From assembly GCA_030699515.1 (NCBI GenBank), contig JAUYME010000066.1, forward strand, positions 1 to 33,120: a DNA stretch of 33,120 bases, read 5' to 3'. A program made the translations under genes and the position numbers. Below the pieces are notes generated by a model. The model made no database searches. It was given only the letters and a program-made list of their open reading frames with translations, and was not told where the DNA came from. Shown here in pieces: positions 2,722 through 33,120 of this stretch (within the stretch, counting starts at the first letter, position 1; each line of letters starts with the position of its first letter). The stretch is from a bacterium (GTDB taxonomy: Bacteria > Patescibacteriota > Minisyncoccia > UBA6257 > 1-14-0-10-44-23).

Positions 2722-2756
2722 GAGCAGAGACCAGAGGGAATCTTTTAATTGAGCTC

Positions 2757-6385: not shown

Positions 6386-6393
6386 ACTTGCCT

Positions 6394-6425
6394 CTTGTCC
6401 ATAACTCTATAGAGTTATGGACAAG
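6394..6425. promoter_or_regulatory. 32-nt perfect palindrome cttgtccataactcta|tagagttatggacaag overlapping the ArsR start codon
   Basis: Perfect dyad. ATG 6417 lies in the right arm. Confidence 0.7.
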
Positions 6426-6749
6426 CCGAGTGTTTTTAGGGTAGACATGACAGAAAGTTCAAGAAAAAATTTTTACAGGTTGGAACGCACTGTTAGGGGC
6501 TTTTCTAATCATAGGCGAATTGAGATTTTGCTGCTGCTTCGAGAGCAGAGGAATATTTCGGTGTCGGATATTGCCAAGGAGTTGAATATTTTGCTCAAGA
6601 CTGCATCAGCTCATGTAAACCGCTTGGCACTGGCTGGTCTGGTTTGGAAGCATTCTGATGGCTCAAGTGTAATTTGTGAGTTAAGCGAACTAGGAGAGAA
6701 GACCGTGGATTTTCTAGAGGATATTGCAGAGAAGTTCAATAAAAAGTAG
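6417..6749 (+). CDS. ArsR/SmtB-family winged-HTH regulator
   Basis: FSNHRRIEILLLL...ISVSDIAKEL...SAHVNRLALAGLV, the typical ArsR HTH. Confidence 0.75.
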   Translation: MDKPSVFRVDMTESSRKNFYRLERTVRGFSNHRRIEILLLLREQRNISVSDIAKELNILLKTASAHVNRLALAGLVWKHSDGSSVICELSELGEKTVDFLEDIAEKFNKK

Positions 6750-6756
6750 CCCTTAT

Positions 6757-6788
6757 CTAGTCCATAACTCTATAGAGTTATGGACTAG
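6757..6788. promoter_or_regulatory. 32-nt perfect palindrome ctagtccataactcta|tagagttatggactag (second copy, with compensatory change)
   Basis: Same dyad as 6394-6425 except tt..aa -> ta..ta at mirrored positions. Lies 8 nt after the ArsR stop. Confidence 0.7.
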
Positions 6789-6828
6789 ATGGCTTTTGTT
6801 TTGAGAGCTTTTGTATTAGATTAGAGCG

Positions 6829-8631
6829 ATGGCACTGAATAATATAAGAAATTTTTCAATCCTCGCCCACATTGACCATGGCAAGTCCACCTTAGCTGAC
6901 CGAATGTTGGAGGTGACTAAAACTGTAGAGGCTCGCAAGATGAAGGAGCAGATTTTGGATTCAATGGATTTGGAACGCGAGCGCGGAATTACAATAAAAA
7001 TGGCACCGGTACGGATGGAATACAACTATCAACGCGAATATATCCTCAACTTGATTGATACTCCCGGTCACAGTGATTTTAGTTACGAGGTAAGCCGGGC
7101 AATGCAGGCTGTAGAGGGCGCCATTCTTTTAGTGGATGCAACACAGGGGATTCAGGCACAAACTTTGGCCAACTTTGAAAATGCGAAGAAGGTGGGGCTG
7201 AAAATGATTGGGGTGGTTAACAAGGTAGATGTTGCGGCAGAAGCCCAGGTAGACAGCGCAATTTTAGATTTAGCAGAGCTTTTGGGAGTAGATACAGACG
7301 AAATAATTAAAGCCAGCGGAAAGACTGGTGAAGGGGTGAATGAAATTTTAAATAGGATTGTAGAGGTGGTACCTGCGCCAACTGAAAAAGAATACAAAAC
7401 AAAGGCAGCGCGAGCATTAATTTTTGATAGTGAATACGATGAGCATAGAGGGGTAATTGCTTTTGTGCGGGTATTTTCCGGCAGGTTTGATATTAATGGA
7501 AATTACAGCTTTGTTGCCACAGGGGCAAAATTTAAGGCAAAGGATATCGGATACCTGAAGCCAAAATTTACAACAAACGATGTAATTGAAAATGGGGAGA
7601 TTGGTTATATAGCGACCGGGATTAAGGATCCGGATGCTTTAAAAATTGGAGATACGGTTTCCAATTCAAGCAGTGGGGAGGGTTTGGCGCTTCCGGGCTA
7701 TCAAGATGTTATGCCGGTAGTGTTTGTGAGCTTTTATCCGGAAGATGCAAGTGATTATAACGATTTTGTGAAGGCGCTTTCTAAGCTTCGGCTTTCTGAC
7801 AGTGCGCTGGTTTTTGAGCCGGACAAAAGTGAAGTGTTGGGCAGGGGATTTAAGGGCGGATTTTTAGGCCGGCTTCACTTTGAGATTGTGAGCGAGCGAA
7901 TTGAGCGAGAATTTGACATTGAAACAATTTCATCTTTTCCATCTGTGGCTTATCGAGTAAAGCTTCGTAATACTGATGATTGGATGATTGTAAATAATCC
8001 TAAAGATTTTCCGGATGATTATAGCGAAGTAGAGGAGCCAATGGCTCAAATTGAAATTTTGACTAAGAGTGAATATTTGGGAGCAATTATGGGGCTCTCT
8101 GACTTGTATAGGATAAGTGCAATGCATACGGAAAATGTCGGTTCGGAACGGATTAGGGTTTCTGCAAAATTGCCGCTGGCTGATTTAATTTCTGATTTTG
8201 ACGATAGGTTAAAGAGTGTGAGTGCCGGATTTGCGTCTTTGAGCTATGAATTATCCGGCTATTCCCCGGGTGAACTTGGCAAAATGGAAATTCTTGTTGC
8301 AGAGGCGGTTGTACCCGGACTCACCAGAATTTTGCCTAAGGAAGATATTGAAAGAGAGGGAAGACGGACTGTAGAGAAACTGAAAGATCTTTTACCAAAA
8401 CTTCAATTTAAGCAGGCCATTCAAGCTAGATGCAAAGGAAGAATAATTGCGCGAGAAACTTTGCCTGCGCTAAAGAAAGATGTTACCGGCTACTTGTATG
8501 GCGGAGATATTACCCGTAAGCAAAAGCTTTGGAAGAAGCAAGCGAAAGGAAAGAAGAAGCTTTTGGAGCGCGGAGCCGGAAGCCAAGTGCATGTTCCTGC
8601 TAATGTGTTTAAGGAACTACTGAAGAAATAG
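6829..8631 (+). CDS. lepA: Elongation factor 4 (LepA)
   Basis: IRNFSILAHIDHGKSTL, DTPGH and NKVD GTPase motifs. LepA-specific C-terminal region. Confidence 0.95.
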   Translation: MALNNIRNFSILAHIDHGKSTLADRMLEVTKTVEARKMKEQILDSMDLERERGITIKMAPVRMEYNYQREYILNLIDTPGHSDFSYEVSRAMQAVEGAILLVDATQGIQAQTLANFENAKKVGLKMIGVVNKVDVAAEAQVDSAILDLAELLGVDTDEIIKASGKTGEGVNEILNRIVEVVPAPTEKEYKTKAARALIFDSEYDEHRGVIAFVRVFSGRFDINGNYSFVATGAKFKAKDIGYLKPKFTTNDVIENGEIGYIATGIKDPDALKIGDTVSNSSSGEGLALPGYQDVMPVVFVSFYPEDASDYNDFVKALSKLRLSDSALVFEPDKSEVLGRGFKGGFLGRLHFEIVSERIEREFDIETISSFPSVAYRVKLRNTDDWMIVNNPKDFPDDYSEVEEPMAQIEILTKSEYLGAIMGLSDLYRISAMHTENVGSERIRVSAKLPLADLISDFDDRLKSVSAGFASLSYELSGYSPGELGKMEILVAEAVVPGLTRILPKEDIEREGRRTVEKLKDLLPKLQFKQAIQARCKGRIIARETLPALKKDVTGYLYGGDITRKQKLWKKQAKGKKKLLERGAGSQVHVPANVFKELLKK

Positions 8632-8702
8632 GTTATAGGTAATAGTTTATAGGTTATAGAGAAAACAAGAAAGGATAGGGAATAGTAAGAAAAATAAAGC
8701 CA

Positions 8703-8875
8703 CCACAATCGCACTATGCCGCGGCACAGTGCGATTGTGGGGAGTGGTGTGGTGGGTGGTTAACAAGGTGGTTAACCGCTATAAAGGCTAGAAAGCCTCA
8801 TGAATACTGGGCTTTTGGGCTGTTTAAAAAAGAATTATATAATTTATTATGTAATAAATTATATAATTCTTTTTT
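8703..8875. repeat. Composite module A: hairpin 8703-8740, GGTGGTTAAC x2 (8755-8764, 8767-8776), aagcctcatgaata, A/T-only palindrome 8826-8875
   Basis: Homologous in order and sequence to 32120-32358. The hairpin stems differ by compensatory changes. Confidence 0.8.
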
Positions 8876-8951
8876 TTGGGAAGTCTTATTAAAAAGCGGA
8901 ACCGGCGGCCCTGGAGAGGGTCGCCGGCGCGCGGATGGAGGGTGGGGCTAG

Positions 8952-9188
8952 CTAGCAAACAGAGTGTCCCTTGTTGATCCACTCGTCGAGCTCTTGCTGT
9001 CGAGGGTCGAAGTGGCAGGTGCCTCCGACCTCGCGCCGACAGATAGGGCAGTTTTGCATGTGCTCTATCAGTCGCCGACCAGCAGGATCTGTCGTCTGCT
9101 CGATGGTCTTGGCCGATGGCAATCTGGGGAAGTAGAGGATTTCTCCTTCCGTCGGTCGCCGATCTTGGGGAGAAGGCTGGTCCACCAT
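8952..9188 (-). CDS. GC-rich mini-ORF (78 aa), CPIC...C.H motif, unknown function
   Basis: SD GGAGA lies 6 nt before the ATG. GC-rich third codon positions. A hairpin plus U-tract follows. The overlapping ORFs 8824..9201 and 8964..9347 look like off-frame translations. Confidence 0.55.
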   Translation of the reverse strand: MVDQPSPQDRRPTEGEILYFPRLPSAKTIEQTTDPAGRRLIEHMQNCPICRREVGGTCHFDPRQQELDEWINKGHSVC

Positions 9189-15157: not shown

Positions 15158-15201
15158 CACTGCATATACCGTAATTCCGCGGAATTACGGTATATGCAGT
15201 G
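15158..15201. promoter_or_regulatory. 44-nt perfect palindrome abutting an extended -10 box (TGgTATAAT 15200-15208)
   Basis: cactgcatataccgtaattccg|cggaattacggtatatgcagtg. Likely operator/promoter of the second ArsR gene. Confidence 0.7.
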
Positions 15202-15221
15202 GTATAATATTTATACTAGTT

Positions 15222-15509
15222 ATGGCAGAGGATAGGCAAAAGTATAGAAATGTTGAGCGAGTGATGAAGGGAGTGGCGAATCATCGGCGGGCTCAAATCC
15301 TTTATCTATTGAAAGAGGAGCCGGAGCTTTCGGTAGCTGAAATAACCAAAAAGTTAGGAGTAAATTTTCGAACGGTTTCTGATCATACGAAGAAGCTGGT
15401 TCATGCAGGTTTAGTAATGAAAAGATCGGATAGCGTGAGTGTTCGGCACAAACTTACAGATTTAGGACATAAGGTTTTTGAGTTTATCGTAACCTACATA
15501 AAAAACTAG
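15222..15509 (+). CDS. ArsR/SmtB-family winged-HTH regulator (paralog of 6417..6749)
   Basis: VANHRRAQILYLL...LSVAEITKKL...SDHTKKLVHAGLV aligns with the first ArsR protein. Confidence 0.75.
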   Translation: MAEDRQKYRNVERVMKGVANHRRAQILYLLKEEPELSVAEITKKLGVNFRTVSDHTKKLVHAGLVMKRSDSVSVRHKLTDLGHKVFEFIVTYIKN

Positions 15510-15513
15510 CTTC

Positions 15514-15547
15514 CATATACCGTAATTCTGCAGAATTACGGTATATG
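15514..15547. promoter_or_regulatory. 34-nt perfect palindrome, variant of 15158-15201 with a compensatory centre change (ccgcgg -> ctgcag)
   Basis: catataccgtaattctg|cagaattacggtatatg, 5 nt after the ArsR stop. Confidence 0.7.
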
Positions 15548-15621
15548 CAGAAGCCGGGAGGTGGAAAGGGTGTATAATAGAAGACCCTAGGTATTATTAT
15601 TAATCTTATTAGTCATTATTT

Positions 15622-16620: not shown

Positions 16621-16915
16621 TTTTTTTGTGCTTTGCCTTGACCTGCGAGACTTTCGTTTGGATGAAGTATCGCCAAGTCAAGGTAGCTTTATTAAAGTTG
16701 TAATAAATGCGACTTTTCTACAGTAGCTGACGATTGAAACTAGCAACTCTTTCCTTGCTATGTTATTCGCTAAAAATCTTTAAGGTGATAAAATGGAATT
16801 GTAGTTTCAAGAAAAGTTGAATATCCCGATATGATAGCTTCTAGTGCCTTTGGCACTAAGCATCAAACGGGATGCTCAATTTTGTAGATAAATCTAAGAT
16901 TTAAACAAAATTGGC

Positions 16916-18763
16916 ATGTGTGGAATTGTTGGATACATAGGAAAGAAAAGGGCAATGCCGGTTTTGCTGGATGGTTTAAAGCGCTTGGAATATCGCGGCT
17001 ACGATAGTGCCGGGGTGGCGATTTTGGAAAACACTGAAGTTAAGGCATTTAAAAAAGTTGGGCGGGTGGAAAATTTGCTTAAAGCGATTGAGACAGCGGG
17101 GGAGTTGGACAGCATGGCCCATATTGGTGTAGCGCATACCAGATGGGCAACTCATGGAAAGCCCAGCGAGGAAAATGCTCATCCGCACAGTGATGAATTT
17201 GGTAAGTTTTGGTTGGTGCACAATGGAATTATTGAAAATTATGAGGAACTAAAGAAAGAGCTTTCAGAGAGCGGGGTAAAATTTAGTTCGGAAACGGACA
17301 CCGAGGTTGTAGTGCAGCTGATTGCTAAAGAAATGGAAGCTGGACTAAGTTTTGAAGAGGCTTTTCGAGTGGCGCTTAAAAAACTTCGAGGAGCTTATGG
17401 AATTGTAGTAATGAGTGCAGACGAGCCGGAATATTTAATGGCTGCAAGAAATTCAAGTCCGCTTTTAATTGGAGTAGGAGATGGGGAAATGATAGTAGCG
17501 TCTGATGCAAGTGCCGTTGTGGGTACAACTAAAAAAATTGTTTATTTGGAAGATGGGGAGTTGGCAAAAGTTTCAGCAGATGGGCTAAAGATTGAGCTTA
17601 TTGCCGAGGCTGGTAAAGAGTTGAAGCGCGAGGCAGAAACTGTAGATATGGATGCAAGCGAAATAGAAAAGGACGGACACGATTTCTTTATGCATAAAGA
17701 AATTTTTGAAATTCCCAGCGCTGTTTTAAATGCGGGAAGGGGAAGGTTTATTGCCAGTGAGGGTTTGGTGAAGTTTGGAGGTATTGAAGAAATTAAAAGC
17801 AAGTTAAGGGATATTGATAGAATTATTATTTCCGCTTGCGGCACCGCAGCCTATGCTGGCTTACTGGGCGAATATTTTATTGAAGAGCTGGCCGGAATTC
17901 CGGTGGAAGTGGAAATTGGCTCTGAATTCAGATACAGAAGCCCTGTATTTACGGAGCGCACTGCTTTAATTGTTGTTTCTCAATCTGGGGAAACTGCAGA
18001 TACATTGGCGGCGGTGCGAGAAGCAAAGGAGAAGGGGATTTTAGTTTTAGGTATTGTTAATGTAGTTGGCTCTACAATTGCGCGCGAAGTGGACTGTGGA
18101 ATTTATACCCATGCCGGTCCGGAAATTGGAGTGGCCTCTACAAAAGCTTTTATTTCTCAGCTTACGGTACTTTTACTTTTGGCTATTTATTTGGGCAGAC
18201 AGCGAAATTTATCTGTAAATGAAACAAAGGAAATTTTGGCAGATTTAGAGAAGCTTCCTGAGCTTTTAGATTCTATCTTGCATCGAGAAAAATTGGCAAA
18301 GAAGCTAGCAAAGAAATATAAAGATTTTACCAGCATGGCTTTCTTGGGTAGAAAATATAGTTTCCCTGTGGCGCTGGAGGGAGCTTTGAAATTAAAAGAA
18401 ATTTCTTATATCCATGGAGAAGGTTATCCGGCAGGAGAATTTAAGCATGGGCCAATTGCGCTCCTTGATGAAAAATTTCCGGTTTTCTTTATATTGCCTA
18501 GCGATGATGTTTACGAAAAAAGTAAATCTAATTTGGAAGAGATAAAAGCAAGGCAAGCGCCTGTAATTGCCATTGTGACTGAAGGAAATAAAGAATTAAT
18601 GAGAATGGCTGATGATGTTTTGGAAATCCCCAAAATAGCAAATATTTTAAGCCCGTTTCTTTCTACGCTTTGGACTTATCTTTTTGCTTACCATGTTGCG
18701 GATATGAAAAATTTGGACGTGGATAAGCCTAGAAACTTAGCTAAGTCTGTGACCGTCGAGTAA
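16916..18763 (+). CDS. glmS: Glutamine--fructose-6-phosphate aminotransferase
   Basis: N-terminal MCGIVGY, two SIS domains, C-terminal KPRNLAKSVTVE. Confidence 0.95.
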   Translation: MCGIVGYIGKKRAMPVLLDGLKRLEYRGYDSAGVAILENTEVKAFKKVGRVENLLKAIETAGELDSMAHIGVAHTRWATHGKPSEENAHPHSDEFGKFWLVHNGIIENYEELKKELSESGVKFSSETDTEVVVQLIAKEMEAGLSFEEAFRVALKKLRGAYGIVVMSADEPEYLMAARNSSPLLIGVGDGEMIVASDASAVVGTTKKIVYLEDGELAKVSADGLKIELIAEAGKELKREAETVDMDASEIEKDGHDFFMHKEIFEIPSAVLNAGRGRFIASEGLVKFGGIEEIKSKLRDIDRIIISACGTAAYAGLLGEYFIEELAGIPVEVEIGSEFRYRSPVFTERTALIVVSQSGETADTLAAVREAKEKGILVLGIVNVVGSTIAREVDCGIYTHAGPEIGVASTKAFISQLTVLLLLAIYLGRQRNLSVNETKEILADLEKLPELLDSILHREKLAKKLAKKYKDFTSMAFLGRKYSFPVALEGALKLKEISYIHGEGYPAGEFKHGPIALLDEKFPVFFILPSDDVYEKSKSNLEEIKARQAPVIAIVTEGNKELMRMADDVLEIPKIANILSPFLSTLWTYLFAYHVADMKNLDVDKPRNLAKSVTVE

Positions 18764-18770
18764 GGATGTG

Positions 18771-18837
18771 GACCCCCGCGTGCTTCGCGCGCTGCACCAG
18801 AGCCGACGAGGCAAGCTCGGGCTCGGTGCGGGGCGGG
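18771..18837. repeat. GC-rich two-hairpin element, copy 1
   Basis: gaCCCCCGC-[GCGUG cuucg CGCGC]-u-[GCACC a GAGCC ga CGAG gcaag CUCG GGCUC GGUGC]-GGGGcggg. Homologous to 19337-19406 and 32844-32912. Confidence 0.85.
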
Positions 18838-18838
18838 T

Positions 18839-18877
18839 AAACCAAGAAATTTGGCAAAAAGCGTTACTGTGGAATAA
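18839..18877 (+). pseudogene. Displaced second copy of the glmS 3' end (KPRNLAKSVTVE*), synonymously different from 18725-18763
   Basis: aaa cca aga aat ttg gca aaa agc gtt act gtg gaa taa translates identically to the last 12 codons plus stop of glmS. It lies 114 nt downstream in the same frame. Confidence 0.8.
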
Positions 18878-18883
18878 AGAAAT

Positions 18884-18916
18884 AAAAAACACCTCGCAAG
18901 CGCGGGGTGTTTTTTA
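18884..18916. terminator. Bidirectional intrinsic terminator
   Basis: aaaaaacacctcgc-aa-gcgcggggtgtttttt, between convergent glmS and the small membrane gene. Confidence 0.7.
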
Positions 18917-18931
18917 TTTTATACTGCTGAA

Positions 18932-19168
18932 CTATTCAGTGCCAGAGTCTTCGCCGTCAGGAAGGCTAATGTCTACATCAACTCCTGTGCCGTCGTTGTC
19001 TGTATCTTCGCTACTTCCTCCTGCAAAGTAGAAGATAAGGCCGGCAACAACTACAATTAGGATAATGATAGTAATCCACATTCCGCCGTTACCGCCTTTG
19101 CGCTCTGGCTGGCTAGCCATTGGCTGCTGCCCTTGAGGTGCTTGGCCTTGTTGTTCTTGGTTTTCCAT
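18932..19168 (-). CDS. Small single-pass membrane protein (78 aa), paralog of 16375..16620
   Basis: Q/G-rich N-terminus, TM MWITIIILIVVVAGLIFYFA, C-terminal GVDVDISLPDGEDSG. Confidence 0.55.
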   Translation of the reverse strand: MENQEQQGQAPQGQQPMASQPERKGGNGGMWITIIILIVVVAGLIFYFAGGSSEDTDNDGTGVDVDISLPDGEDSGTE

Positions 19169-19336
19169 AGTGTGTATGTTGTTAATTTCTAATGAATACT
19201 AGTAAAAGCATAACATTATTATAGAATAATGCTCGTTTTGCAGTGGAAAAATAGAGAGTAATCGCGAACATCGCGAATTGCGCAAAATATCGCGAATAAA
19301 ACTAAGGCGGGGAAAATTGGGTTATTCCAAGGTTGA

Positions 19337-19461
19337 GACCCCCGCATGGCAAGCCGTGCTGCACCAGAACCAACGAAGTAAATTCGGGCTCGGTGCGGGG
19401 CAGGACTTGGTAGCTTGCTGGTGTGTACTTAGTGATGGGCTGGATAGTTTTTCAATCGGTC
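19337..19461. repeat. GC-rich two-hairpin element, copy 2 (core 19337-19406) plus a ~55-nt tail, bounded by 19-nt direct repeats
   Basis: Core homologous to copies 1 and 3. Direct repeats ttattccaaggttgagacc at 19322-19340 and 19462-19480. Confidence 0.85.
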
Positions 19462-19953
19462 TTATTCCAAGGTTGAGACCGTGGACTGCAAAGATCTAGT
19501 TTCTTTGATTTGAGGATTGTCCGGGTTGGAAGTCAATACAATAGAAATTTGCACAGCAGTGGTAGAGGTGCCGCTAAATTCCTGGAAAGTTAGGCTGTCT
19601 AGCGTAACATCGGCGCTTGTTAGCGCTTCTTGCGAATTTGACCCCAGCTTTCTGTAGATTGTTCCTGCTGAACTGTTGATTATAATCGGGTCGGTGCTTG
19701 ACACTCCGGTAGTAATTGTAAGGGTTGAACTGCTGACAGATATTGATTGACCCTGGCGGACGTCGGTTTTGATAACATTCATTACAAAGCTTAGCTCACT
19801 GCTTAGTTTATAGCCTGAGCTTTGATGCTGCTGAACTCTAAGAATTGTAAATAGTATTCCTGAAAGAAGGCTAAGAAGGATAACGGTAAGGCCAAGGTAG
19901 ATGACCAGCTCAATGAAAGAAAGCCCCCGCGTGCTTCGCGCGCTTTTAAACAC
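19462..19953 (-). CDS. Prepilin-type (type IV pilin-like) pseudopilin; start uncertain (GTG 19953 or ATG 20028)
   Basis: G|LSFIELVIYLGLTVILLSLL is a class III signal/methylation motif. The stretch upstream of the Gly is repeat-derived sequence. Confidence 0.7.
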   Translation of the reverse strand: MFKSARSTRGLSFIELVIYLGLTVILLSLLSGILFTILRVQQHQSSGYKLSSELSFVMNVIKTDVRQGQSISVSSSTLTITTGVSSTDPIIINSSAGTIYRKLGSNSQEALTSADVTLDSLTFQEFSGTSTTAVQISIVLTSNPDNPQIKETRSLQSTVSTLE

Positions 19954-20044
19954 TAATGCACGAATGGGCGCGAATCCTCTAATAAGAAATGAAGGTCCTT
20001 TCGTTTTATTCGGTGATTGATGAATCATTGGTGTATTAGTGTTT
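19948..20044. repeat. MITE-like inverted-repeat element E1 (termini AAACACTAATGCAC ... GTGTATTAGTGTTT)
   Basis: Homologous, in reverse orientation, to 29112-29227. Shares a 19-nt identical end, cattggtgtattagtgttt. Confidence 0.75.
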
Positions 20045-20131: not shown

Positions 20132-20836
20132 ATGACGGATAGTAATGAAACCGGAACACAGGTAAAAGACTCAATGCTTGAAGAGATGGCGCAGGCCGGT
20201 CTTTTGTTTGGGCGGAAAAAATCAAAGACTAATCCAAAAATGAAGGATTATGTTTTTGCGAACCGAAACGGCTTTGAGATGTTTGATTTGGAAAAAACCG
20301 CCGCAAAGCTTGAGGAAGCTAAGGCATTTTTGGCTTCCGTGGCAAAGACCGGGAAAACTATTTTGTTTGTTGGTACTACTCCTGCGGGCCAAGAAGTTAT
20401 GAAGGAAGTTGCCGAAGGCTTTAAGGCTCCTTATGTAACCCATAGGTGGCTTGGCGGTACTTTAAGTAATTTTGAAACAATTTCTTCACGGCTTAGGTAT
20501 TTTATTAAACTTAAGGCCGACAAAGAATCCGGAAAACTTGAAAAATATACCAAGAAGGAGCGGACAAAATTTGATAAAGAGCTGGAAAGATTAGAGAGGC
20601 TTTTCGGCGGTCTTGAAGAATTAACTGCTATGCCTGCCGCACTCATTGTGGCAAATACAGATGCGCATTCAATTGCAGTAAGAGAGGCAAATATTGCAGG
20701 AGTGCCGGTAATTGGAATTACAAATTCCAGCACCGATCCTGAGGGCGTAGATTATCTGATTCCGGCAAATGACAACAGTATTTCTAGCGTGCGTTGGATT
20801 GTTGAGCAATTAGCGCAGGCGTTAAAGACGAAGTAA
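20132..20836 (+). CDS. rpsB: 30S ribosomal protein S2
   Basis: MLEEMAQAGLLFGRKKSKTNPKM... and HRWLGGTLSNF. ATG 20132 preferred over the ORF-track start. Confidence 0.9.
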   Translation: MTDSNETGTQVKDSMLEEMAQAGLLFGRKKSKTNPKMKDYVFANRNGFEMFDLEKTAAKLEEAKAFLASVAKTGKTILFVGTTPAGQEVMKEVAEGFKAPYVTHRWLGGTLSNFETISSRLRYFIKLKADKESGKLEKYTKKERTKFDKELERLERLFGGLEELTAMPAALIVANTDAHSIAVREANIAGVPVIGITNSSTDPEGVDYLIPANDNSISSVRWIVEQLAQALKTK

Positions 20837-21003
20837 GCGAAGTAGACGAAGTAGGCGAAGTAAGCGAATAAACGAAGTAGCAAATAAACGAAGTAGGCGA
20901 AGTAGGCGAAATTAGAATTAACTTTGAACTATTTGGAATATGGCGACCCTTCGACAAGCTCAGGGTGCTCATATTTCTAGATAAATCAAAGATTTATAGA
21001 AAT

Positions 21004-22043: not shown

Positions 22044-22328
22044 TTACGTCGCCTCATCCTCATGGGGGTCCTCCTTGCTAGCAACGAACTCTTGGTTGTA
22101 GGCAGTGTAGACGGCCTTGACCATTGTCCAGGCATCTTCCTCGGAGCCGGCCCGCTCAACTACCCTCTGACTGTTCGGAGAGTACTGATGGAGCATGATG
22201 AGCGCCCAAACGACGATGTAGTCGTTGGTGATCGTGTGCTCCATACCGTCAACGCACACCTTCATGCCAATGAGCTCTTGCAGGCGAGAATAGACCGCGC
22301 CGGTTTCGGGGCGCTTACTGTCGTTCAT
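22044..22328 (-). CDS. GC-rich mini-ORF (94 aa), unknown function
   Basis: SD GGAGA lies 5 nt before the ATG. GC-rich third positions. Own hairpin plus U-tract terminator (about 21975-22025, minus strand). Confidence 0.65.
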   Translation of the reverse strand: MNDSKRPETGAVYSRLQELIGMKVCVDGMEHTITNDYIVVWALIMLHQYSPNSQRVVERAGSEEDAWTMVKAVYTAYNQEFVASKEDPHEDEAT

Positions 22329-24046: not shown

Positions 24047-24211
24047 ATGGGTAAGTATTGCGTAAACTGCAAACATCTGCTTCGCAAGGAGGCAGATGGG
24101 CCACGGTTCAACGTTTGGTACAATCTTCTGTGTAGGAAGGCTCCCCGAGAAGTCGCGGTTGATCCCGTGACTGGCGAGGCTGGCTTCGAGGCTGTAAACT
24201 CCTTGGGTTAG
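24047..24211 (+). CDS. GC-rich Cys-rich mini-ORF (54 aa to an in-frame TAG; the frame stays open 25 more codons to TAG 24287-24289)
   Basis: Perfect SD AAGGAGGTG lies 4-5 nt before the ATG. CVNC...C...DPVTGE. After the TAG: RYFTEDAFQNCRDVNQGECEMWEPQ. Confidence 0.55.
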   Translation: MGKYCVNCKHLLRKEADGPRFNVWYNLLCRKAPREVAVDPVTGEAGFEAVNSLG

Positions 24212-24443
24212 CGCTACTTCACAGAAGACGCCTTCCAGAACTGCAGAGATGTGAACCAGGGAGAATGCGAGATGTGGGAGCCTCAATAGGCTCTGCATCT
24301 CAGCTATGCGTCACCTGCTAGAAGTGGTGAAATAGGGAAAGTTTAACCCAGCGCGGAACCCCGGTGTCTGAAAGGATGTTGGGGTTTCATGGTTTTTAGA
24401 AACAGATCTTGGTTTGAATTTCCTCCATGATGCCCTGCTAAAT

Positions 24444-24756: not shown

Positions 24757-24895
24757 GCCGTTTTGGGTTAAAATAGGGCATTCCTAAGAGTAATCGCTAA
24801 AATCGCGAAAGTACACAAAAAATCGCGAAAAAGATAAAGACGCATAAGACTAAGGAGTAATCGCGAAAAACGCGAATTGATTCAAAATATCGCGA

Positions 24896-25285
24896 ATGGA
24901 AGGCAAAGACCAGAAAATAGAGAGGGGTGAGCTGCAGGCTCTAGTAAAGAAGAGAGATAGCCATGTTAGCCGTCTTTTCTACATGATGCTAGAGTTCTTT
25001 TTAATTTTTGGATTGCCGGCTCTTGCGGCATTTTTTGGTGGCAGGGCGCTAGACTCTGCGCTTGGAACAGGAAAGTTATGGCTTATTATTTTTCTGATAG
25101 CTGCATTTGTTCTGTCTTGGGTAATAGTGGTGCTTAGGGTAAGGAAAATTACAAAGGAGCTGAAAGTGCTGGATGCTAGAATTAAAGAAATTAGAGAATC
25201 CCGTAAAACCGCAACAGCAATGAATGCTGGCGGCCACGGGACTAACTTAAATCAAGATTTAAAAGGAGAAGAAAAGAATGTTTGA
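24896..25285 (+). CDS. AtpZ/AtpI-like small membrane protein preceding the atp genes
   Basis: Two TM helices. Position directly before atpB, with an 8-nt overlap. Confidence 0.5.
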   Translation: MEGKDQKIERGELQALVKKRDSHVSRLFYMMLEFFLIFGLPALAAFFGGRALDSALGTGKLWLIIFLIAAFVLSWVIVVLRVRKITKELKVLDARIKEIRESRKTATAMNAGGHGTNLNQDLKGEEKNV

Positions 25286-26078
25286 TTTTTTACGAAGACA
25301 ATCTGAAGTGCCCGATGTATCACCGGATGTGGTGTTTGAAATTTTTGGATGGCCAATTTCAAACAGCGCACTGCAAATATTTTTTATTCTTATTTTGGTC
25401 ATTCTTTTTAACTTTTTGGTTGTGCGAAAGTTTAAAGTGCACCCCACAAGCAGAGTCCAACATTTTGCAGAGTGGTTTTACAACACAATGGTTCGTTTTG
25501 TTCAGAGCATTACCGGAAGCGAGCAGAAGGCTCGCGACATTATGCCTATAGTGCTTAGCCTTTTTGTTTTTGTGGGGCTTGCTAACCTAATTAACTTTAT
25601 TCCCGGCCTTACCAGTATTACTTACAATGGGGTTTCAATATTTAGAACTCCGACAAGTGATTTTAATACAACTTTTTCAATGGCTGCTACTTTGATTATT
25701 TTTATTCAGTTTGCGGCAATCAAGCGTGCGGGAATATTTAGTTACATTGGGAAGTTTTTCCAATTCAAGCAGATTTTTCAGGGATTTAAGAAGAGCATAG
25801 GCGAGGGCTTTATTGCGATGATTGGCTTTTTTGTGGGTTTATTGGACATTATTTCGGAATTGGCAAAAATGTTCTCGCTTTCTCTACGTTTGTTTGGTAA
25901 CATCTACGCGGGCGAGGTTCTTTTGGTAGTTATATTTGGAGCCTTGGCCTTTGCTCTTCCAAGCCTTTGGATGAGCCTTTCTTTATTCTTTGGAGTAATT
26001 CAAGCAATTGTATTTGGCGCTTTAGCAGCTGCTTACTATGCTTCTTCCGTACCTGATGAGGGAGAAGAAAGTTTATAG
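25278..26078 (+). CDS. atpB: F0 ATP synthase subunit a
   Basis: LSLRLFGNIYAGEVLL, the conserved Arg-containing helix. Confidence 0.9.
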   Translation: MFDFLRRQSEVPDVSPDVVFEIFGWPISNSALQIFFILILVILFNFLVVRKFKVHPTSRVQHFAEWFYNTMVRFVQSITGSEQKARDIMPIVLSLFVFVGLANLINFIPGLTSITYNGVSIFRTPTSDFNTTFSMAATLIIFIQFAAIKRAGIFSYIGKFFQFKQIFQGFKKSIGEGFIAMIGFFVGLLDIISELAKMFSLSLRLFGNIYAGEVLLVVIFGALAFALPSLWMSLSLFFGVIQAIVFGALAAAYYASSVPDEGEESL

Positions 26079-26172
26079 ATAATAGGTTATAGAAAATAGA
26101 GAAAGAAAAAGAGTTTAAATCAGATATTGAAAGTAAAAGGTCAATAAAACTAATTAATTAATCAAAAATAAT

Positions 26173-26403
26173 ATGGAAACAGCAGGAATGTCTGTAGAAG
26201 CAGCAAGTATGATTGCAAAGGGGCTAATTGCTCTTGCAATGGTGGGAACCGCTGCCGGTGAAGGTTACGTTATCGGTAAGGCTCTTGAAGCCATTGGACG
26301 AAACCCAGAGGCTGGAAGCTCTATCTTTGGAAAAATGATTATCGGTGTGGCCATGGCTGAGTCTACAGCTATTTACGCATTGGTGTTGTTTTTCGTCATC
26401 TAG
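26173..26403 (+). CDS. atpE: F0 ATP synthase subunit c
   Basis: Hairpin proteolipid with GRNPE loop and AMAESTAIYALV carboxylate helix. Confidence 0.9.
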   Translation: METAGMSVEAASMIAKGLIALAMVGTAAGEGYVIGKALEAIGRNPEAGSSIFGKMIIGVAMAESTAIYALVLFFVI

Positions 26404-26458
26404 GAGTAATCGCTAATATCGCGAACGGGGGAGGTAATATCGCGAATAAAACAAAAAC

Positions 26459-26941
26459 GTGCAAGAAGTACTAGGAAAAATTGGATTTGATTGGCATTTA
26501 GCCATTGTAAACTTGGTGAATGTATTCATTATTTTTCTGGTACTAAAAAAGTGGGCTTTTGGGCCAATTCAGAACATTATTGATGAGCGAAAGAAGGAGG
26601 TAGATGCAAGTTTGCAGTCTGCGCAAGATGCGCAAAAGCAAAGCGAGATGGCAGAGCAAGAGCGGGAAAAAACCATTGCTAAAGCTAGAAAGGAGGCACA
26701 GGGAATTTTAGAAACTGCCAACGAAGAAAGCAAGGGTATTGTTGAAGAAGGAAAGCTGAAGCTTTCTAAGGAAAAAGATGAGATGCTAAAGAAGGCAAGC
26801 CTTGAGATAGAAGCAAAGAAAAAGGAAAGTGAAGACAAGCTAAAAAGTCAGGCATCCGTCCTTATTACTTCTGGAATTAAGAAAATTCTTAAGGAAGAGG
26901 TGGATAGGGAGATGAACAGTCGCATTATCAACAAAAGTTGA
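26459..26941 (+). CDS. atpF: F0 ATP synthase subunit b (GTG start)
   Basis: N-terminal TM, then a long charged coiled coil. Position in the operon. Confidence 0.8.
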   Translation: MQEVLGKIGFDWHLAIVNLVNVFIIFLVLKKWAFGPIQNIIDERKKEVDASLQSAQDAQKQSEMAEQEREKTIAKARKEAQGILETANEESKGIVEEGKLKLSKEKDEMLKKASLEIEAKKKESEDKLKSQASVLITSGIKKILKEEVDREMNSRIINKS

Positions 26942-27465: not shown

Positions 27466-27600
27466 AAGGATGTAGGATGTAGGAGTTAGAATTTAGGGTT
27501 GGAGGCGAAGCAAAGCTTCGCAGATCTATAACCTACAACCTATAACCTACTTGTGCTGAGCACAGTCGAAGCATAACCTATCCCTATAACCTATAACCTA
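27466..27600. repeat. Word-stutter imperfect hairpin (AGGATGT/AGGAGTT arms versus ATAACCT/ACAACCT arms around GCGAAGC-AAA-GCUUCGC)
   Basis: The left part, 27466-27523, is homologous to 31611-31667. The arms are mutually complementary if G-U pairs are allowed. Confidence 0.7.
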
Positions 27601-27613
27601 CAAACTAAACATT

Positions 27614-29113
27614 ATGAGCATAGATAGATTAATAAGTGAAATTAAAAGCAAAATAGATTCCGTTGAAACCGGTGTAAAAAGCCAGGAGGTTGGTACGGTT
27701 GTTGAAGCCGCAGACGGAATTGCAAAAATTTCCGGTCTATCTGAGTGTTTGGCTAGCGAATTGCTTGAATTTGAAAATGGCGAGTTTGGAATTGCTTTGA
27801 ACCTAGAGGCAGATACGGTTGGAGCAATTATTTTTGGAAATTTTAAAGATATTAAGGAGGGCGATAGTGTAAAGCGAACGGAGCGAGTTTTAGAAGTTCC
27901 GGTTGGAGAGGGAGTAATGGGCAGGATTGTAGATCCTTTAATGAACCCAATTGATGGAAAGGGTCCGATTAAGGCGGATAAGAATATGTATATAGAGCGC
28001 AAAGCTCCCGGTGTGATGAGTAGAGAAGGAGTAAACCAACCGCTTCAAACCGGAATTAAGGCTATTGATGCGTTAACTCCTGTTGGTAGGGGGCAAAGAG
28101 AGCTGATAATTGGAGATAGGCAAACAGGAAAAACCACTGTTGCTATAGATGCAATTTTGAATCAAAAAGGAAAAGATATTAAGTGTGTTTATGTGGCCAT
28201 TGCTCAAAAGAAAAGCAAGATTGCCAAAATTGTTAAAACTTTAGAGGAGGCTGGGGCGATGGAGTACACAACTGTGGTGCTTTCTGGAAGCAGCGACAGT
28301 GCCGCGCTTTCATATCTTGCTCCATACACCGGAGCGGCAATTTGCGAGTACTTTATGGACAAGAGCCAAGACACGCTAGTAATTTACGACGATCTTAGTA
28401 AGCACGCGGTGGCTTACAGAGAAATTTCACTTTTGCTACGCCGTCCTCCCGGCCGAGAAGCGTATCCGGGAGACGTGTTTTATCTTCACTCCAGGTTATT
28501 GGAGAGAGCATGTAGAAGAAACAAGAAGCACAAAGGCGGATCTATGACAGCACTGCCAATTATTGAAACTCAGGCGGGGGATTTGTCTGCCTACATTCCA
28601 ACCAATGTTATCTCAATTACCGACGGGCAGATTTTCTTGGATACGGGGCTGTTCAACAAAGGAATTCGGCCGGCAATTGATGCCGGGCTTTCAGTTTCTC
28701 GTGTTGGAGGAAATGCCCAGATTAAGTCTATGAAGAAGATTTCCGGAAAGGTAAAGCTAGAGCTGGCTCAGTTTAGAGAGCTGGAAAGCTTTGCTCAATT
28801 TGCCAGTGACCTAGATGCAGACACAAAGGCAAAGCTAGACCGTGGTGCGCGAATCACAGAAGCGCTGAAGCAGGGCCAGAACAAGCCAATTGATGCCAGC
28901 CTTCAAGGGGCTTGGATTTACTTTGTAACTAATGGTCACGCCGATAAATTGGAACTTTCTGCAATTGGGGCAACAGAGCAGGCTTTTTACAAGTTTTTAA
29001 CTGCCAGTAAGAAGGATTTGCTAAAAGATATGGAGGTAGATTGGGACGAAAAAATTCAGAAGGAGTTGGATAAGGCGATTAAAGAATTTCAGAGCGTACA
29101 CGCACGCTCATAA
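27614..29113 (+). CDS. atpA: F1 ATP synthase subunit alpha
   Basis: Walker A GDRQTGKT. Alpha signature regions. Confidence 0.95.
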
Positions 29114-30176: not shown

Positions 30177-31595
<1,419 letters not shown>

Positions 31596-31610
31596 CGAAG
31601 CTCAGCCTTC

Positions 31611-31667
31611 AAGGATGTAGGATGTAGGAGTTAGGATGTAGGGCTGGAAGCGAACTAAAGTTCGCAT
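31611..31667. repeat. Second copy of the AGGATGT-word element with covarying central hairpin (GCGAAC-UAAA-GUUCGC)
   Basis: aaggatgtaggatgtaggagttag... is shared with 27466-27523. Confidence 0.7.
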
Positions 31668-31760
31668 TATAGAAAGGCAAAAATAATGACAAGTGAAATA
31701 GATTTAATCCTACTTCGCTAAAGCTTCGCAGGACTATCTAAAATCAAAGATTTTAAAGAA

Positions 31761-32039
31761 ATGATACAACTAAGAATCGTAACGATAGAGGGGGTGAAAT
31801 TTTCCGGGAAGGTGGGGCAGGTAACACTTCCTACCGGTGCCGGTGAAATTACGGTTTTGCCAAACCATATTCCTTTAATTTCTCAATTAAATGCTGGAAC
31901 GTTGCGAACGAAAGGAGGTGAAGAAGGGGAGCAGGCTTTTATTATTGGCAAAGGAGTGCTTGAAGTAAGGAAGGGAAGCAATGTAGTGGTGCTTACGGAT
32001 GAATGCAAAAGCAGTAGCCCTTCGACAAGCTCAGGGTAA
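31761..32039 (+). CDS. atpC: F1 ATP synthase subunit epsilon, beta-sandwich domain only
   Basis: The N-terminal domain pattern (LPNHIPLIS, VLEV) is present. The protein stops after 92 aa. The last 7 codons lie in a 20-nt motif that also occurs at 20947-20966. Confidence 0.75.
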   Translation: MIQLRIVTIEGVKFSGKVGQVTLPTGAGEITVLPNHIPLISQLNAGTLRTKGGEEGEQAFIIGKGVLEVRKGSNVVVLTDECKSSSPSTSSG

Positions 32040-32119
32040 ACAATTAGCATGTAGTAAGTAGTAAGCAGAAGGCGAAGACCAAGGCAAAGACAAATGCTAA
32101 GAAAAGAGGGGGGCGAGCC

Positions 32120-32358
32120 CCCACAATGCTGTTATGCCCAGGCATAACAGCATTGTGGGAAGTGGTTAGCCCGTCCAGCGCACTTCCTTCGGCCCCGCTC
32201 AAGATAAACAAGGCAGGCAGGGTAAACGGGGTAGGCTAGGTGGTTAACTGAGTGGTTGACTGCTTGGTAGAGTGCTTAAGCCTCATGGATAGAGGGGTTC
32301 TAGTCGATTTGGAAAAGAATTATATAATTTATTATATAATAAATTATATAATTCTTTT
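32120..32358. repeat. Composite module B: hairpin 32120-32159, GGTGGTTAAC/AGTGGTTGAC (32239-32248, 32251-32260), aagcctcatggata, A/T-only palindrome 32313-32358
   Basis: Same order as module A (8703-8875), with an extra ~65-nt GC-rich insert after the hairpin. Confidence 0.8.
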
Positions 32359-32362
32359 TTTG

Positions 32363-32408
32363 GATGCTATATCATATCCGGCCGGATATGATATAGCATC
32401 TTGTTTTT
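32363..32408 (+). terminator. 38-nt perfect palindrome plus T-tract
   Basis: gatgctatatcatatccgg|ccggatatgatatagcatc ttgttttt. Confidence 0.65.
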
Positions 32409-32476
32409 AAACTTGGCAATAAATTGTTAGTATTTAAGTGTTCCTCGAAAATTTCACGACCACGGAAGGAGAATGG

Positions 32477-32677
32477 ATGCAGGAGCAGAAAAGCGCTGTG
32501 GACCCCATGCGCCTCAAGGGGCAGTGGGTGAGCTGTAGGGACCAATGTCGCCCACTCTTCGTTCGCGAAGTGGGTGGCGGTTCCAACCCGCTCGGGCTGG
32601 CTGAGGATGAGCTGGGCAAGGTCATCCTCTGGTCGCCACTGAAGAATGTGGACATCCCCACCGATCTGGGCGTCTGA
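32477..32677 (+). CDS. GC-rich mini-ORF (66 aa), unknown function
   Basis: SD GGAAGGAG lies 5 nt before the ATG. GC-rich third positions. Weak local similarity (C....REVGG....P....EL) to the 8952..9188 product. Confidence 0.5.
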   Translation: MQEQKSAVDPMRLKGQWVSCRDQCRPLFVREVGGGSNPLGLAEDELGKVILWSPLKNVDIPTDLGV

Positions 32678-32679
32678 CG

Positions 32680-32843
32680 CTCACACGGAAGCCACAACTT
32701 CCGGCGCTAGGCGCCGGTACGCAACTTCCCGGGGGTCGCCGTATCTGCGGCGACCCCCAGACCCCATAGCCCTTGTAGCTCCCGCCCGTTGCAAAGTAAT
32801 GGGCGAGGCTCGCCCAGCAGCAAAGCTGCTTCGGGCGGCAATG
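32680..32843. other. Chain of GC-rich hairpins, including a second Y-shaped unit (CCGCCC [GGGCGA ggc UCGCCC][AGCAGC aaa GCUGCU] GGGCGG)
   Basis: ggaagcc-acaa-cttcc, ggcgc-tag-gcgcc and gggggtcgccg-tatct-gcggcgaccccc are read directly. All ORFs here look like off-frame noise. Confidence 0.5.
32769..32781 (+). other. Duplicated fragment of the tRNA-Arg 5' end (gcccttgtagctc versus gcctttgtagctc at 32965-32977)
   Basis: 12 of 13 nt identical, same orientation, 196 nt upstream of the intact tRNA. Confidence 0.6.
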
Positions 32844-32912
32844 GACCCCCGCGCGCTTCGCGTGCTGCACCAGAACCAACGAGGCAAGCTCGGGTTCGGT
32901 GCGGGGCAGGAC
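32844..32912. repeat. GC-rich two-hairpin element, copy 3
   Basis: gacccccgcgcgcttcgcgtgctgcaccagaaccaacgaggcaagctcgggttcggtgcggggcaggac. Confidence 0.85.
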
Positions 32913-32964
32913 TCAATAGCCATTAGCCCTGATGTTGTTTGTATGCTTTGATGCGCGTGAATAT

Positions 32965-33039
32965 GCCTTTGTAGCTCAATGGATAGAGCAGTCCCGTCCT
33001 AAGGGAAAGATGTGGGTTCGATTCCTACCAAGGGCACCA
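32965..33039 (+). tRNA. tRNA-Arg(CCU), CCA encoded
   Basis: GCCTTTG TA GCTC AATGGATA GAGC A GTCCC GTCCTAA GGGAA AGAT GTGGG TTCGATT CCTAC CAAGGGC A CCA. Confidence 0.85.
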
Positions 33040-33041
33040 GA

Positions 33042-33070
33042 GTAAATTCTGCGCAGAGCGCAGAATTTAC
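33042..33070 (+). terminator. Palindromic hairpin after tRNA-Arg, followed by CAAATTG/CAAATTT word stutter to the window end
   Basis: gtaaattctgcgc-aga-gcgcagaatttac. Confidence 0.55.
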
Positions 33071-33120
33071 AATTGCAAATTGCAAATTTCAAATTTCAAA
33101 TTTTTAATTTCAAATTTTAA

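Follow-up and report, generated by a model that had tools for sequence, protein, structure and literature searches.

A probable mosaic spacer between atpC and tRNA-Arg in a Parcubacteria genome, and a family of short structured elements at gene ends

The interval between atpC and tRNA-Arg

The spacer that separates the ATP synthase gene atpC from the gene for tRNA-Arg(CCT), close to the end of the 33,120-nt contig JAUYME010000066.1 (the whole of this stretch is called the window here), holds a dispersed repeat termed module B, two perfect palindromes, a 66-codon open reading frame (ORF66) followed by GC hairpins and, next to the tRNA gene, one copy of a 69-nt GC-rich element termed Y. The left boundary is atpC (31761-32039, + strand), the final atp gene, a 92-amino-acid ORF for the epsilon subunit with a Pfam match (PF02823 / ATP-synt_DE_N, E 3.7e-20) and native composition (GC at third codon positions, GC3, 0.40). 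The right boundary is tRNA-Arg(CCT) (32965-33039, + strand; called by ARAGORN, 59.9 bits in Rfam), which is also the target gene of the events described below. The source genome belongs to the Parcubacteria, of the candidate phyla radiation (CPR), near Harrisonbacteria, and metagenome-assembled genomes (MAGs) of Candidatus Harrisonbacteria and Zambryskibacteria are its best named relatives by AtpD, at 85-87% identity.

The original prediction, made from the letters of this DNA, described a GC-rich composite island of about 0.85 kb that had grown by repeated accretion of small insertions at a hotspot beside the tRNA gene. Every part that it listed was found in place between the atpC stop and the tRNA. 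The interval measures 925 nt from that stop, and the high GC content holds for 32401-33000 (0.54 and 0.62) but not for 32101-32400 (0.45), the GC-rich share of the interval being its right-hand 560 nt only (0.54-0.62). The window is otherwise low-GC DNA, at 0.37-0.47 in most 300-nt segments, in a genome of about 0.42. Accretion itself is demonstrated for the block that contains Y, likely for ORF66, and unproven for module B.

The spacer is thus probably a mosaic of separately derived pieces rather than one ancestral unit. The left third would be the terminator region of the atp operon, made of module B and a second perfect palindrome with a T run. The middle would be a stand-alone cassette from outside, comprising an AT-rich leader with a Shine-Dalgarno (SD) site, the 66-codon orphan ORF and two GC hairpins. 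The right 196 nt would represent a Y element, that is, a 69-nt three-way junction with a variable tail, inserted into the first 13-19 nt of tRNA-Arg.

Y elements and duplicated gene ends

A displaced copy of the tRNA-Arg 5' end, GCCCTTGTAGCTC, lies at 32769-32781 on the + strand and matches the first 13 nt of the gene at 12 positions; the working end, GCCTTTGTAGCTC, lies at 32965-32977, with a 183-nt insert between the two. Within the window the displaced copy is the sole other match to the tRNA 5' end at no more than one mismatch, and shuffled sequences lead one to expect none, which bears out the tRNA 5' fragment of the original prediction. A direct repeat of part of a tRNA flanking an insert, the mark of tRNA islands, is therefore present. 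Because the displaced and functional 5' ends bracket the block, 32782-32964 is read as an insertion, and this reading is further backed because the same element family leaves the same signature at two other gene ends. At the level of sequence, the right-hand 196 nt (32769-32964) can be regarded as demonstrated to be an insertion at the tRNA-Arg 5' end with its target restored. The 183-nt insert shows no coding periodicity. An intron scar was considered and rejected, since the tRNA fragment ends at position 13-19, short of the anticodon loop.

The two ends differ in an informative way. The C4 of the displaced copy would form a Watson-Crick pair with G69, whereas the working tRNA-Arg has a U4.G69 wobble; the closest tRNA-Arg(CCT) in JGI metagenomes (L072, identical at 69 of 72 positions) starts GCCCTTG. 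On account of the C4-G69 pair and the agreement with L072 at position 4, the stranded copy looks ancestral and the working end looks imported. The Y insert would accordingly have re-supplied the tRNA 5' end with its U4.G69 pair and stranded the original C4 end upstream, and before the event the empty site would have run from ...CCCCATA directly into an intact GCCCTTGTAGCTCAATGGATAG tRNA.

Between the displaced copy and Y lies a structured 58-nt GC-rich unit (32782-32839, + strand; fold -35.4 kcal/mol, z-score -4.9). It had been described as Y-shaped; the structured unit is real but the shape is not, as the minimum-energy fold consists of two tandem hairpins. The unit is single-copy, no second copy having been found. 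Directly 3' of it stands AATGGA (32840-32845), which corresponds to tRNA-Arg positions 14-19. If this is no coincidence, the displaced fragment was originally 19 nt long, the same length as the repeat at the second Y copy, and it is plausible that the 58-nt unit is a later insertion nested within the stranded fragment, a case of real layering. The sign of nesting is these 6 nt, and the core of the first Y copy is also preceded by TGGA. On the other side of Y an AT-richer tail of 53 nt (32912-32964, + strand; alignment A3) leads to the tRNA.

The element, family D1 among the repeats of the window, is present in three copies on the + strand: Y1 (18770-18838) at the 3' end of glmS, Y2 (19336-19405) at the 3' end of a pilin-like gene and Y3 (32843-32911) at the 5' end of tRNA-Arg. 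Y3, the "element copy 3" of the original prediction, is 92% identical to 18769-18834, and core identity across the three sites is 84-92%. A covariance model built from the three scores them at 98 (Y3), 97 and 88 bits, with everything else in the window at 17 bits or below, and it finds no further full copy in the window or in the loci of nine relatives. In the consensus, 23 pairs form a three-way junction, and three of them show compensatory double changes among the three copies. Each copy is bracketed by two versions of the neighbouring gene end. In a scan of about 33 gene ends for such duplications only those of glmS and the pilin-like gene emerged; the association is thus 3 of 3 for the Y copies as against 0 of about 33 for other gene ends. 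A tail match of 6/9 after the gene at 1864-2721 overlaps the end of a convergent gene and was set aside as chance.

At glmS the duplication is visible in codons. The insertion region (18725-18877, + strand) comprises the functional gene end, 6 nt, Y1 and the displaced gene end. By translation, the functional end, KPRNLAKSVTVE* at 18725-18763, is written in GC-type codons (aag cct aga aac tta gct aag tct gtg acc gtc gag taa), and the displaced end, an in-frame KPRNLAKSVTVE* at 18839-18877 directly after Y1, in AT-type codons (aaa cca aga aat ttg gca aaa agc gtt act gtg gaa taa). Both specify the same 12 residues and a stop with 26 of 39 nt identical; the longest identical run within the 39 nt is 5 nt, and all 13 differences are synonymous, including TCT against AGC for serine. 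A duplicate under neutral decay could not have kept to silent changes alone; the two ends must therefore have diverged while functional, in different genomes, before the insertion brought them together. The last 12 codons of glmS have a GC3 of 0.58 as against 0.27-0.35 upstream (0.35 directly upstream), and a bidirectional terminator native to the gene (18884-18915; fold z-score -9.6) begins 6 nt past the displaced end. Judged by its codons and by this neighbour, the AT-type copy is the native glmS end. The 12-residue C-terminus is kept in 106 of 120 GlmS relatives and the final ...LAKSVTVE* in all 120; no close GlmS relative is on record beyond the same sample, and hence no empty glmS site to compare. 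The element would here carry a recoded replacement end, by which the essential gene survives insertion.

Y2 and its tail are bracketed by a 19-nt direct repeat, TTATTCCAAGGTTGAGACC (19322-19340 and 19462-19480, + strand), the copies of which are identical at 19/19 positions with none expected by chance. The right copy is the stop and last five codons (...VSTLE*) of the pilin-like gene (19462-20028, - strand). A separate observation concerns the same gene: the first 21 nt of Y1, CCCCCGCGTGCTTCGCGCGCT, recur exactly at 19924-19944, in the region coding for the prepilin leader (KSARSTRG/LSFIELV), where the covariance model gives a weak partial match of 17 bits, so that the pilin-like gene has this segment in its leader as well as Y2 at its 3' end.

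Y would on these grounds be a non-autonomous, lineage-specific mobile element that is moved by an enzyme encoded outside the window and placed in gene termini, each time along with a copy of the end that it displaces. Alternatively, the Y blocks may be scars of recombinase-borne islands that integrated by crossover at attachment (att) sites and were then internally deleted to attL/attR plus Y. Direct repeats of the target end do flank each insert, the sites lie beside a tRNA and glmS, both classic integration targets, and each re-supplied end differs slightly from the displaced end, as sequence derived from attP usually does. Such an origin is nevertheless improbable: no recombinase gene lies in or near any insert, the inserts are no longer than 93-183 nt, the tRNA is hit in its 5' 13-19 nt and not in the usual 3' half, the glmS copies share no run above 5 nt that could have served as a crossover core, and three independent deletions would all have had to leave just Y.

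The atpC flank, ORF66, module B and the assembly

Relatives were reached by a protein search with AtpD, a scan of GTDB with atpC having given one distant match at 44% identity. The interval lacks conservation: what follows atpC in five relatives is unrelated to it. In two genomes at 85-87% AtpD identity (L008 and L133) a convergent pilin-like gene lies 6-25 nt past atpC. In L004 (88%) the gap between these two genes holds a terminator, an AT-rich leader, a GC-rich orphan ORF of 132 amino acids (7755-8153; GC 0.62, GC3 0.75) and a GC hairpin. In L131 atpC is followed by msrA and a GC-rich orphan ORF of 64 amino acids (4695-4889), with tRNA-Arg(CCT) 1.35 kb off on the opposite strand behind other genes, and in L132 by a C39 peptidase gene. 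As far as these sequences go, the atpC 3' flank is a recurrent breakpoint, variable in every relative examined. The hotspot placed by the original prediction on the tRNA side therefore belongs as much to the flank of atpC.

The orphan ORFs of L004 and L131 are unrelated, yet both have an SD site and a GC hairpin and stand just downstream of the atp operon in independent assemblies. The pattern suggests a clade-wide habit of gathering GC-rich cassettes at the atp-operon breakpoint. The closest relative, L003 (95% AtpD identity), has a Y copy that starts in its atpD-atpC spacer, where the window has none; its contig breaks inside the copy. By this comparison the position of Y differs between close strains, as a presence/absence difference. 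L003 also has, at 2732-3628, an extra 298-amino-acid ORF between atpG and atpD, of native composition and predicted to be secreted or membrane-bound, which has no counterpart in the window. The spacers of the atp operon are 62-380 nt in the window as against 1-20 nt in relatives.

ORF66 (32477-32677, + strand) is preceded by an AT-rich leader (32401-32476, + strand) in which an SD site, GGAAGGAG (32464-32471, + strand), stands 5 nt upstream of the ATG, as had been predicted. Its GC content by codon position, 0.67/0.42/0.76 (chi-square p = 0.0001), departs from the host GC3 of 0.36-0.41, and the adjoining GC-rich non-coding DNA has no such periodicity; ORF66 thus has the codon-position composition and the ribosome-binding site of a coding gene. 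It probably is a real, or recently real, gene with GC-rich foreign codon composition, and because of that composition and of its absence from relatives the cassette probably arrived separately. Together with two further orphan ORFs of the window, ORF78 and ORF94, it has no match in Pfam, PHROGs, PADLOC or NCBIfam, no tblastn match to phages or plasmids, and none in IMG/VR; the island DNA at 32400-32964 is likewise without a match in phage records. The AlphaFold model of ORF66 (pLDDT, the predicted confidence score, 51.7) shows no confident fold and is too poor for a fold search.

The 3' flank of ORF66 carries two perfect hairpins on the + strand, each preceded by AACTTCC: CCGGCGC-TAG-GCGCCGG (32701-32717) and GGGGGTCGCCG-TATCTG-CGGCGACCCCC (32731-32758), the latter with the perfect 11-bp stem already picked out from the letters alone. 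Together they fold at -41.5 kcal/mol (z-score -5.0); neither is followed by a T run, so that the stretch at 32701-32758 does not qualify as an intrinsic terminator. A promoter scan gave no convincing sigma-70 promoter for ORF66 or tRNA-Arg. With no T run behind the hairpins and no promoter detected ahead of the tRNA, ORF66, Y3 and tRNA-Arg may form one transcript that is trimmed by RNase P.

GC-rich orphan cassettes of the same design, unrelated to ORF66 and to each other in sequence, occur elsewhere in the window: ORF78 (8952-9188, - strand; coding-type GC periodicity, GC3 0.66, with its own GC hairpin terminator) after the other copy of module B, ORF94 (22044-22328, - strand; coding-type GC periodicity) between tRNA-Tyr and tRNA-Thr, and a TAG-interrupted ORF after tRNA-Trp (24047-24290, + strand; coding-type GC periodicity). 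In the last, coding-like periodicity goes on past the in-frame TAG at 24209-24211, and a pseudogene and read-through are the alternatives. The GC-rich orphan cassettes beside tRNAs and atpC might be cargo of Y or its fellow travellers.

That these ORFs differ from site to site is also what would be seen if no dedicated element existed, and fragments of DNA from higher-GC relatives or hosts, Y and the GC-type glmS end among them, had been taken up by competence and patched in at breaks by homology-facilitated illegitimate recombination that duplicated stretches of the recipient. Among the genes of the window are comEC (PF03772, E 7.5e-46) and a pilin-like gene, relatives with GC of about 0.50 exist, repeat lengths and tails vary, and the glmS end is a xenologous allele. 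This route is unlikely all the same, as random fragments would not recur in the way that the 69-nt core does, with 84-92% identity and compensatory changes at three sites and in one relative, and as the native GC3 (0.35) right upstream of the 39-nt glmS end leaves no long donor-type anchor.

Module B (32096-32361, + strand; delimited by dispersed-repeat families D4/I1/I9, blastn and alignment) is called a dispersed repeat because it is also present after lepA, as copy A (8686-8878, + strand; same repeat families, alignment and folds). An 84-nt core is 86% identical by blastn (32278-32361 and 8793-8876), and both copies have, in the same order, a hairpin based on CCACAAT/ATTGTGG, GGTGGTTAAC twice, AAGCCTCATG, and a perfect AT palindrome with a T run. 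The atpC copy consists, in order, of a small GC hairpin (32108-32122), the 40-nt hairpin with the conserved CCACAAT/ATTGTGG base (32120-32159), an extra GC-rich segment of about 70 nt missing from the other copy (32166-32238), GGTGGTTAAC/GTGGTTGAC (32239-32260), AAGCCTCATG (32278-32287) and the perfect 46-nt AT palindrome (32313-32358). The module B hairpins fold with z-scores of -5.2 and -6.5, and the upper stem of the first hairpin is swapped at 5 consecutive pairs between the copies with pairing kept.

The predicted 38-nt palindrome is perfect (32363-32400, self reverse-complement at 38/38) and stands in tandem with the AT palindrome; folded together, the two reach a z-score of -10.5. Both have the stable hairpin and T run of intrinsic terminators, namely 32362-32401 with TGTTTTT (terminator scan, + strand) and 32313-32358 with TTTTTTT, and the same scan finds a minus-strand terminator-like site in module B at 32122-32105. 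Module B is a dispersed repeat ending in bidirectional terminators; with both palindromes it looks like the atp-operon terminator region, reused at a second locus, and the two T-run palindromes would terminate the atp operon. A displaced atpC or lepA end beside module B was sought in the gene-end scan and none was found.

This degree of structure raises the question of whether the interval is instead an ancestral functional unit, a structured leader or small-RNA region controlling tRNA-Arg or the atp operon. Its hairpins are very stable (z-scores of -5 to -10), the module B hairpin and Y have changed in sequence yet still pair, and both palindromes are plausible terminators. Against these stand the unrelated content after atpC in the five relatives, the opposite strand of the only nearby tRNA-Arg (in L131), the lack of an Rfam match, and displaced gene ends that would have no functional rationale, and such a unit is very improbable. 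With Rfam 15, the curated RNA family matches above gathering score in the window are its four tRNAs only, and a relaxed search of 31590-33120 and 18700-19520 returned sub-threshold chance matches only. A group I intron, RNase P, a riboswitch, transfer-messenger RNA (tmRNA) and a known small RNA are disfavoured by these searches.

The abrupt GC step near 32400 might also be explained by an assembly artefact, in which GC-rich DNA of another organism was joined in at the Y repeat or the palindromes. Run SRR13727534 yielded two Logan contigs that match positions 31323-32342 and 16858-19340 of the window without a difference; they confirm the junction of atpC with module B and the whole Y1 arrangement. 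One of them ends within the AT palindrome (at 32342), the other precisely where Y2 starts (19340). These breaks, the fact that the AT palindrome is common to a second locus, and the lack of an independent contig over 32342-32964 speak for a false join. On the other hand the GC-rich block holds Y3, a native repeat whose sister Y1 lies in an independently reproduced contig; the tRNA fragment left of Y3 matches the tRNA on its right and so ties both sides together; at 8.7-9.3 kb a GC-rich orphan cassette again comes after module B, in the same layout; and similar GC-rich orphan ORFs lie past atpC in independently assembled relatives. The matching gene-end repeats that flank each Y copy argue, on their sequence, for correct joins across the repeat, and an artefact is hardly to be credited.

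Several observations weigh against the mosaic and against the part assigned to Y in it. The Logan contigs come from one run, possibly from the window's own reads, and their limit at 32342 leaves the join to ORF66 not independently confirmed. No insertion junctions were found at module B or the two palindromes. ORF66 has no homologue in 5.8e9 proteins (word-index search) or in 1.84e9 representatives (phmmer) and carries no gene annotation in the source record; it might not code for protein at all, or be in decay. A degenerate Y pattern has no match in IMG/VR or in JGI metagenomes, and the element is known in only two related genomes, which provides no population-level proof of mobility. No ORF of the 33-kb window encodes a transposase, integrase or nuclease. 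The flanking duplications measure 13 (or 19) nt at Y3, 19 nt at Y2 and 39 nt, at the codon level, at Y1; an identical crossover core is seen at Y2 (19/19) and nearly so at Y3 (12/13), with none at Y1 (longest run 5 nt). Viewed in the orientation of Y, the re-supplied gene end lies differently at Y1 than at Y2 and Y3, no single architecture fitting all three. The Y2 tail is similar to the Y3 tail in length, with an identity of only about 43%. Varied duplication lengths, dissimilar tails and a glmS repeat without a core are misfits to a model with a single simple transposase or integrase.

Relation to known systems and other features of the window

Y can be compared with several kinds of mobile DNA. 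Like integrative islands that target tRNA genes by means of tyrosine recombinases, the insert lies beside a tRNA, is flanked by a direct repeat of part of the tRNA, re-supplies that part in slightly different form and has foreign DNA for a neighbour. Unlike them, it targets the 5' 13-19 nt rather than the 3' half, and its 183 nt include no recombinase; Y is also found at the 3' ends of two protein genes, and the glmS repeat has no identical crossover core.

Miniature repeats, among them miniature inverted-repeat transposable elements (MITEs), REP/BIME, Correia/NEMIS, RUP and Rickettsia palindromic elements, resemble Y in being short, non-coding, structured, multi-copy and lineage-restricted, and in lying at gene ends and in intergenic DNA. 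Y is small, non-coding and multi-copy as a MITE should be, with three cores in 33 kb and one in L003. It nevertheless lacks terminal inverted repeats, its insert ends being CCCGCATGG...CAATCGGTC at Y2 and CCGCCCG...GTGAATAT at Y3, and near the ends pairing is confined to the internal 4-bp stem that closes the core. Instead of a simple palindrome, the core forms a three-way junction. The duplications that flank it are long (13-39 nt), consist of gene ends, include one synonymously recoded replacement of 12 codons, and measure 13 (or 19), 19 and 39 nt; beyond the 33 kb covered, a related autonomous element with a transposase may exist.

Tn7 shares with Y1 a landing site at the conserved C-terminal end of glmS. 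Tn7 goes in downstream of the glmS stop, duplicates 5 bp and leaves the coding sequence unreplaced, whereas the Y1 insert lies 39 nt upstream of the native stop, brings its own copy of the gene end and has no tns genes. Insertion sequences of the IS1634 group, reportedly described by Vilei et al. in 1999 as having long, variable direct repeats, are like Y in producing long target duplications of variable length; they differ in being autonomous, with a DDE transposase and inverted repeats, and duplication by a transposase of this type cannot explain glmS differences that are synonymous only.

Fungal mitochondria contain GC clusters and double-hairpin elements, which resemble Y in that they are GC-rich double hairpins scattered through a compact AT-rich genome, where they lie at rearrangement points and the termini of genes. 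In Allomyces, according to what Paquin, Laforest and Lang are said to have found in 1994, an atp6 element carries a replacement C-terminus; as at Y1, the mobile insert brings a foreign 3' end and the original is left as a downstream remnant. These systems differ from Y in being organellar and in that the Allomyces element encodes an endonuclease, none being seen here, and there is no sequence relationship. By analogy, the fungal GC double-hairpin elements and the Allomyces atp6 element appear to be the closest conceptual parallel. Repetitive hairpin-forming elements also occur in sponge mitochondria (PMC2800124). Nothing relevant on repeat elements or islands of the CPR was found in the library searched.

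The Y family is a new variant among miniature structured mobile repeats, without the recombinase, the terminal inverted repeats, the duplications of one length or the Rfam match that would place it in one of the bacterial families compared. A further step, possible yet doubtful, is to see in Y an undescribed kind of CPR/Patescibacteria mobile element that homes into the termini of essential genes (glmS, tRNA, pilin) with a recoded replacement end, leaving the host gene intact and the occupied site no longer target-like; moved in trans by a nuclease or recombinase, it would correspond, in non-coding bacterial form, to the homing elements that replace gene ends in fungal mitochondria.

Little is known of mobile DNA in the CPR/Patescibacteria, whose genomes are small and streamlined. 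The locus shows at base-pair resolution how a streamlined genome gains DNA, with orphan genes of foreign composition gathering at the same breakpoints, and the synonymously recoded glmS terminus is direct evidence for DNA exchange between diverged lineages. If actively mobile, Y would provide a strain-level marker, a likely cause of breaks in MAG assemblies and a clue to a targeting enzyme with conserved gene termini as its recognition sites.

The gene order of the window is comEC, an ion exchanger, a class II aminoacyl-tRNA synthetase, ndk, lepA, murB, hpf, secA, glmS, the pilin-like gene, rpsB, tsf, four tRNAs and the atp operon. At its start an MnmA-like ORF, which runs off the window and ends near 281, contains in its C-terminal part (...SGQSAVIYDLKGERLLGGGVIYKAL*) three in-frame 37-nt GC-rich hairpin repeats (44-165; 3 x 37 = 111 nt), each read in a different frame. 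They are counted as a related GC-rich hairpin repeat and resemble the in-frame Rickettsia palindromic elements. Two small ArsR/MarR-type helix-turn-helix genes (6417-6749 and 15222-15509) each lie between two copies of one perfect palindrome of 33-37 nt (regions 6393-6789 and 15160-15550); these palindromes may mark cassette boundaries or act as operators or terminators.

Clusters of an (A)ATCGCGAA motif stand upstream of a small membrane protein gene and of atp genes (19252-19314, 24784-24896 and 26400-26464), and may represent a shared regulator-binding site or promoter element. Short tandem motifs rich in stops, TAGGTTATAGG, GTAGGATGTAGGA, GACGAAGTA (five times) and CAAATTT, fill the spacers directly behind stop codons at 8620-8663, 20813-20915, 26060-26103, 27466-27623, 31611-31660 and 33064-33120. 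The contig ends inside one of these: in the 81 nt between the end of tRNA-Arg(CCT) and the contig end, a terminator-like hairpin (33042-33070) is followed by the CAAATTT repeats at which the contig stops.

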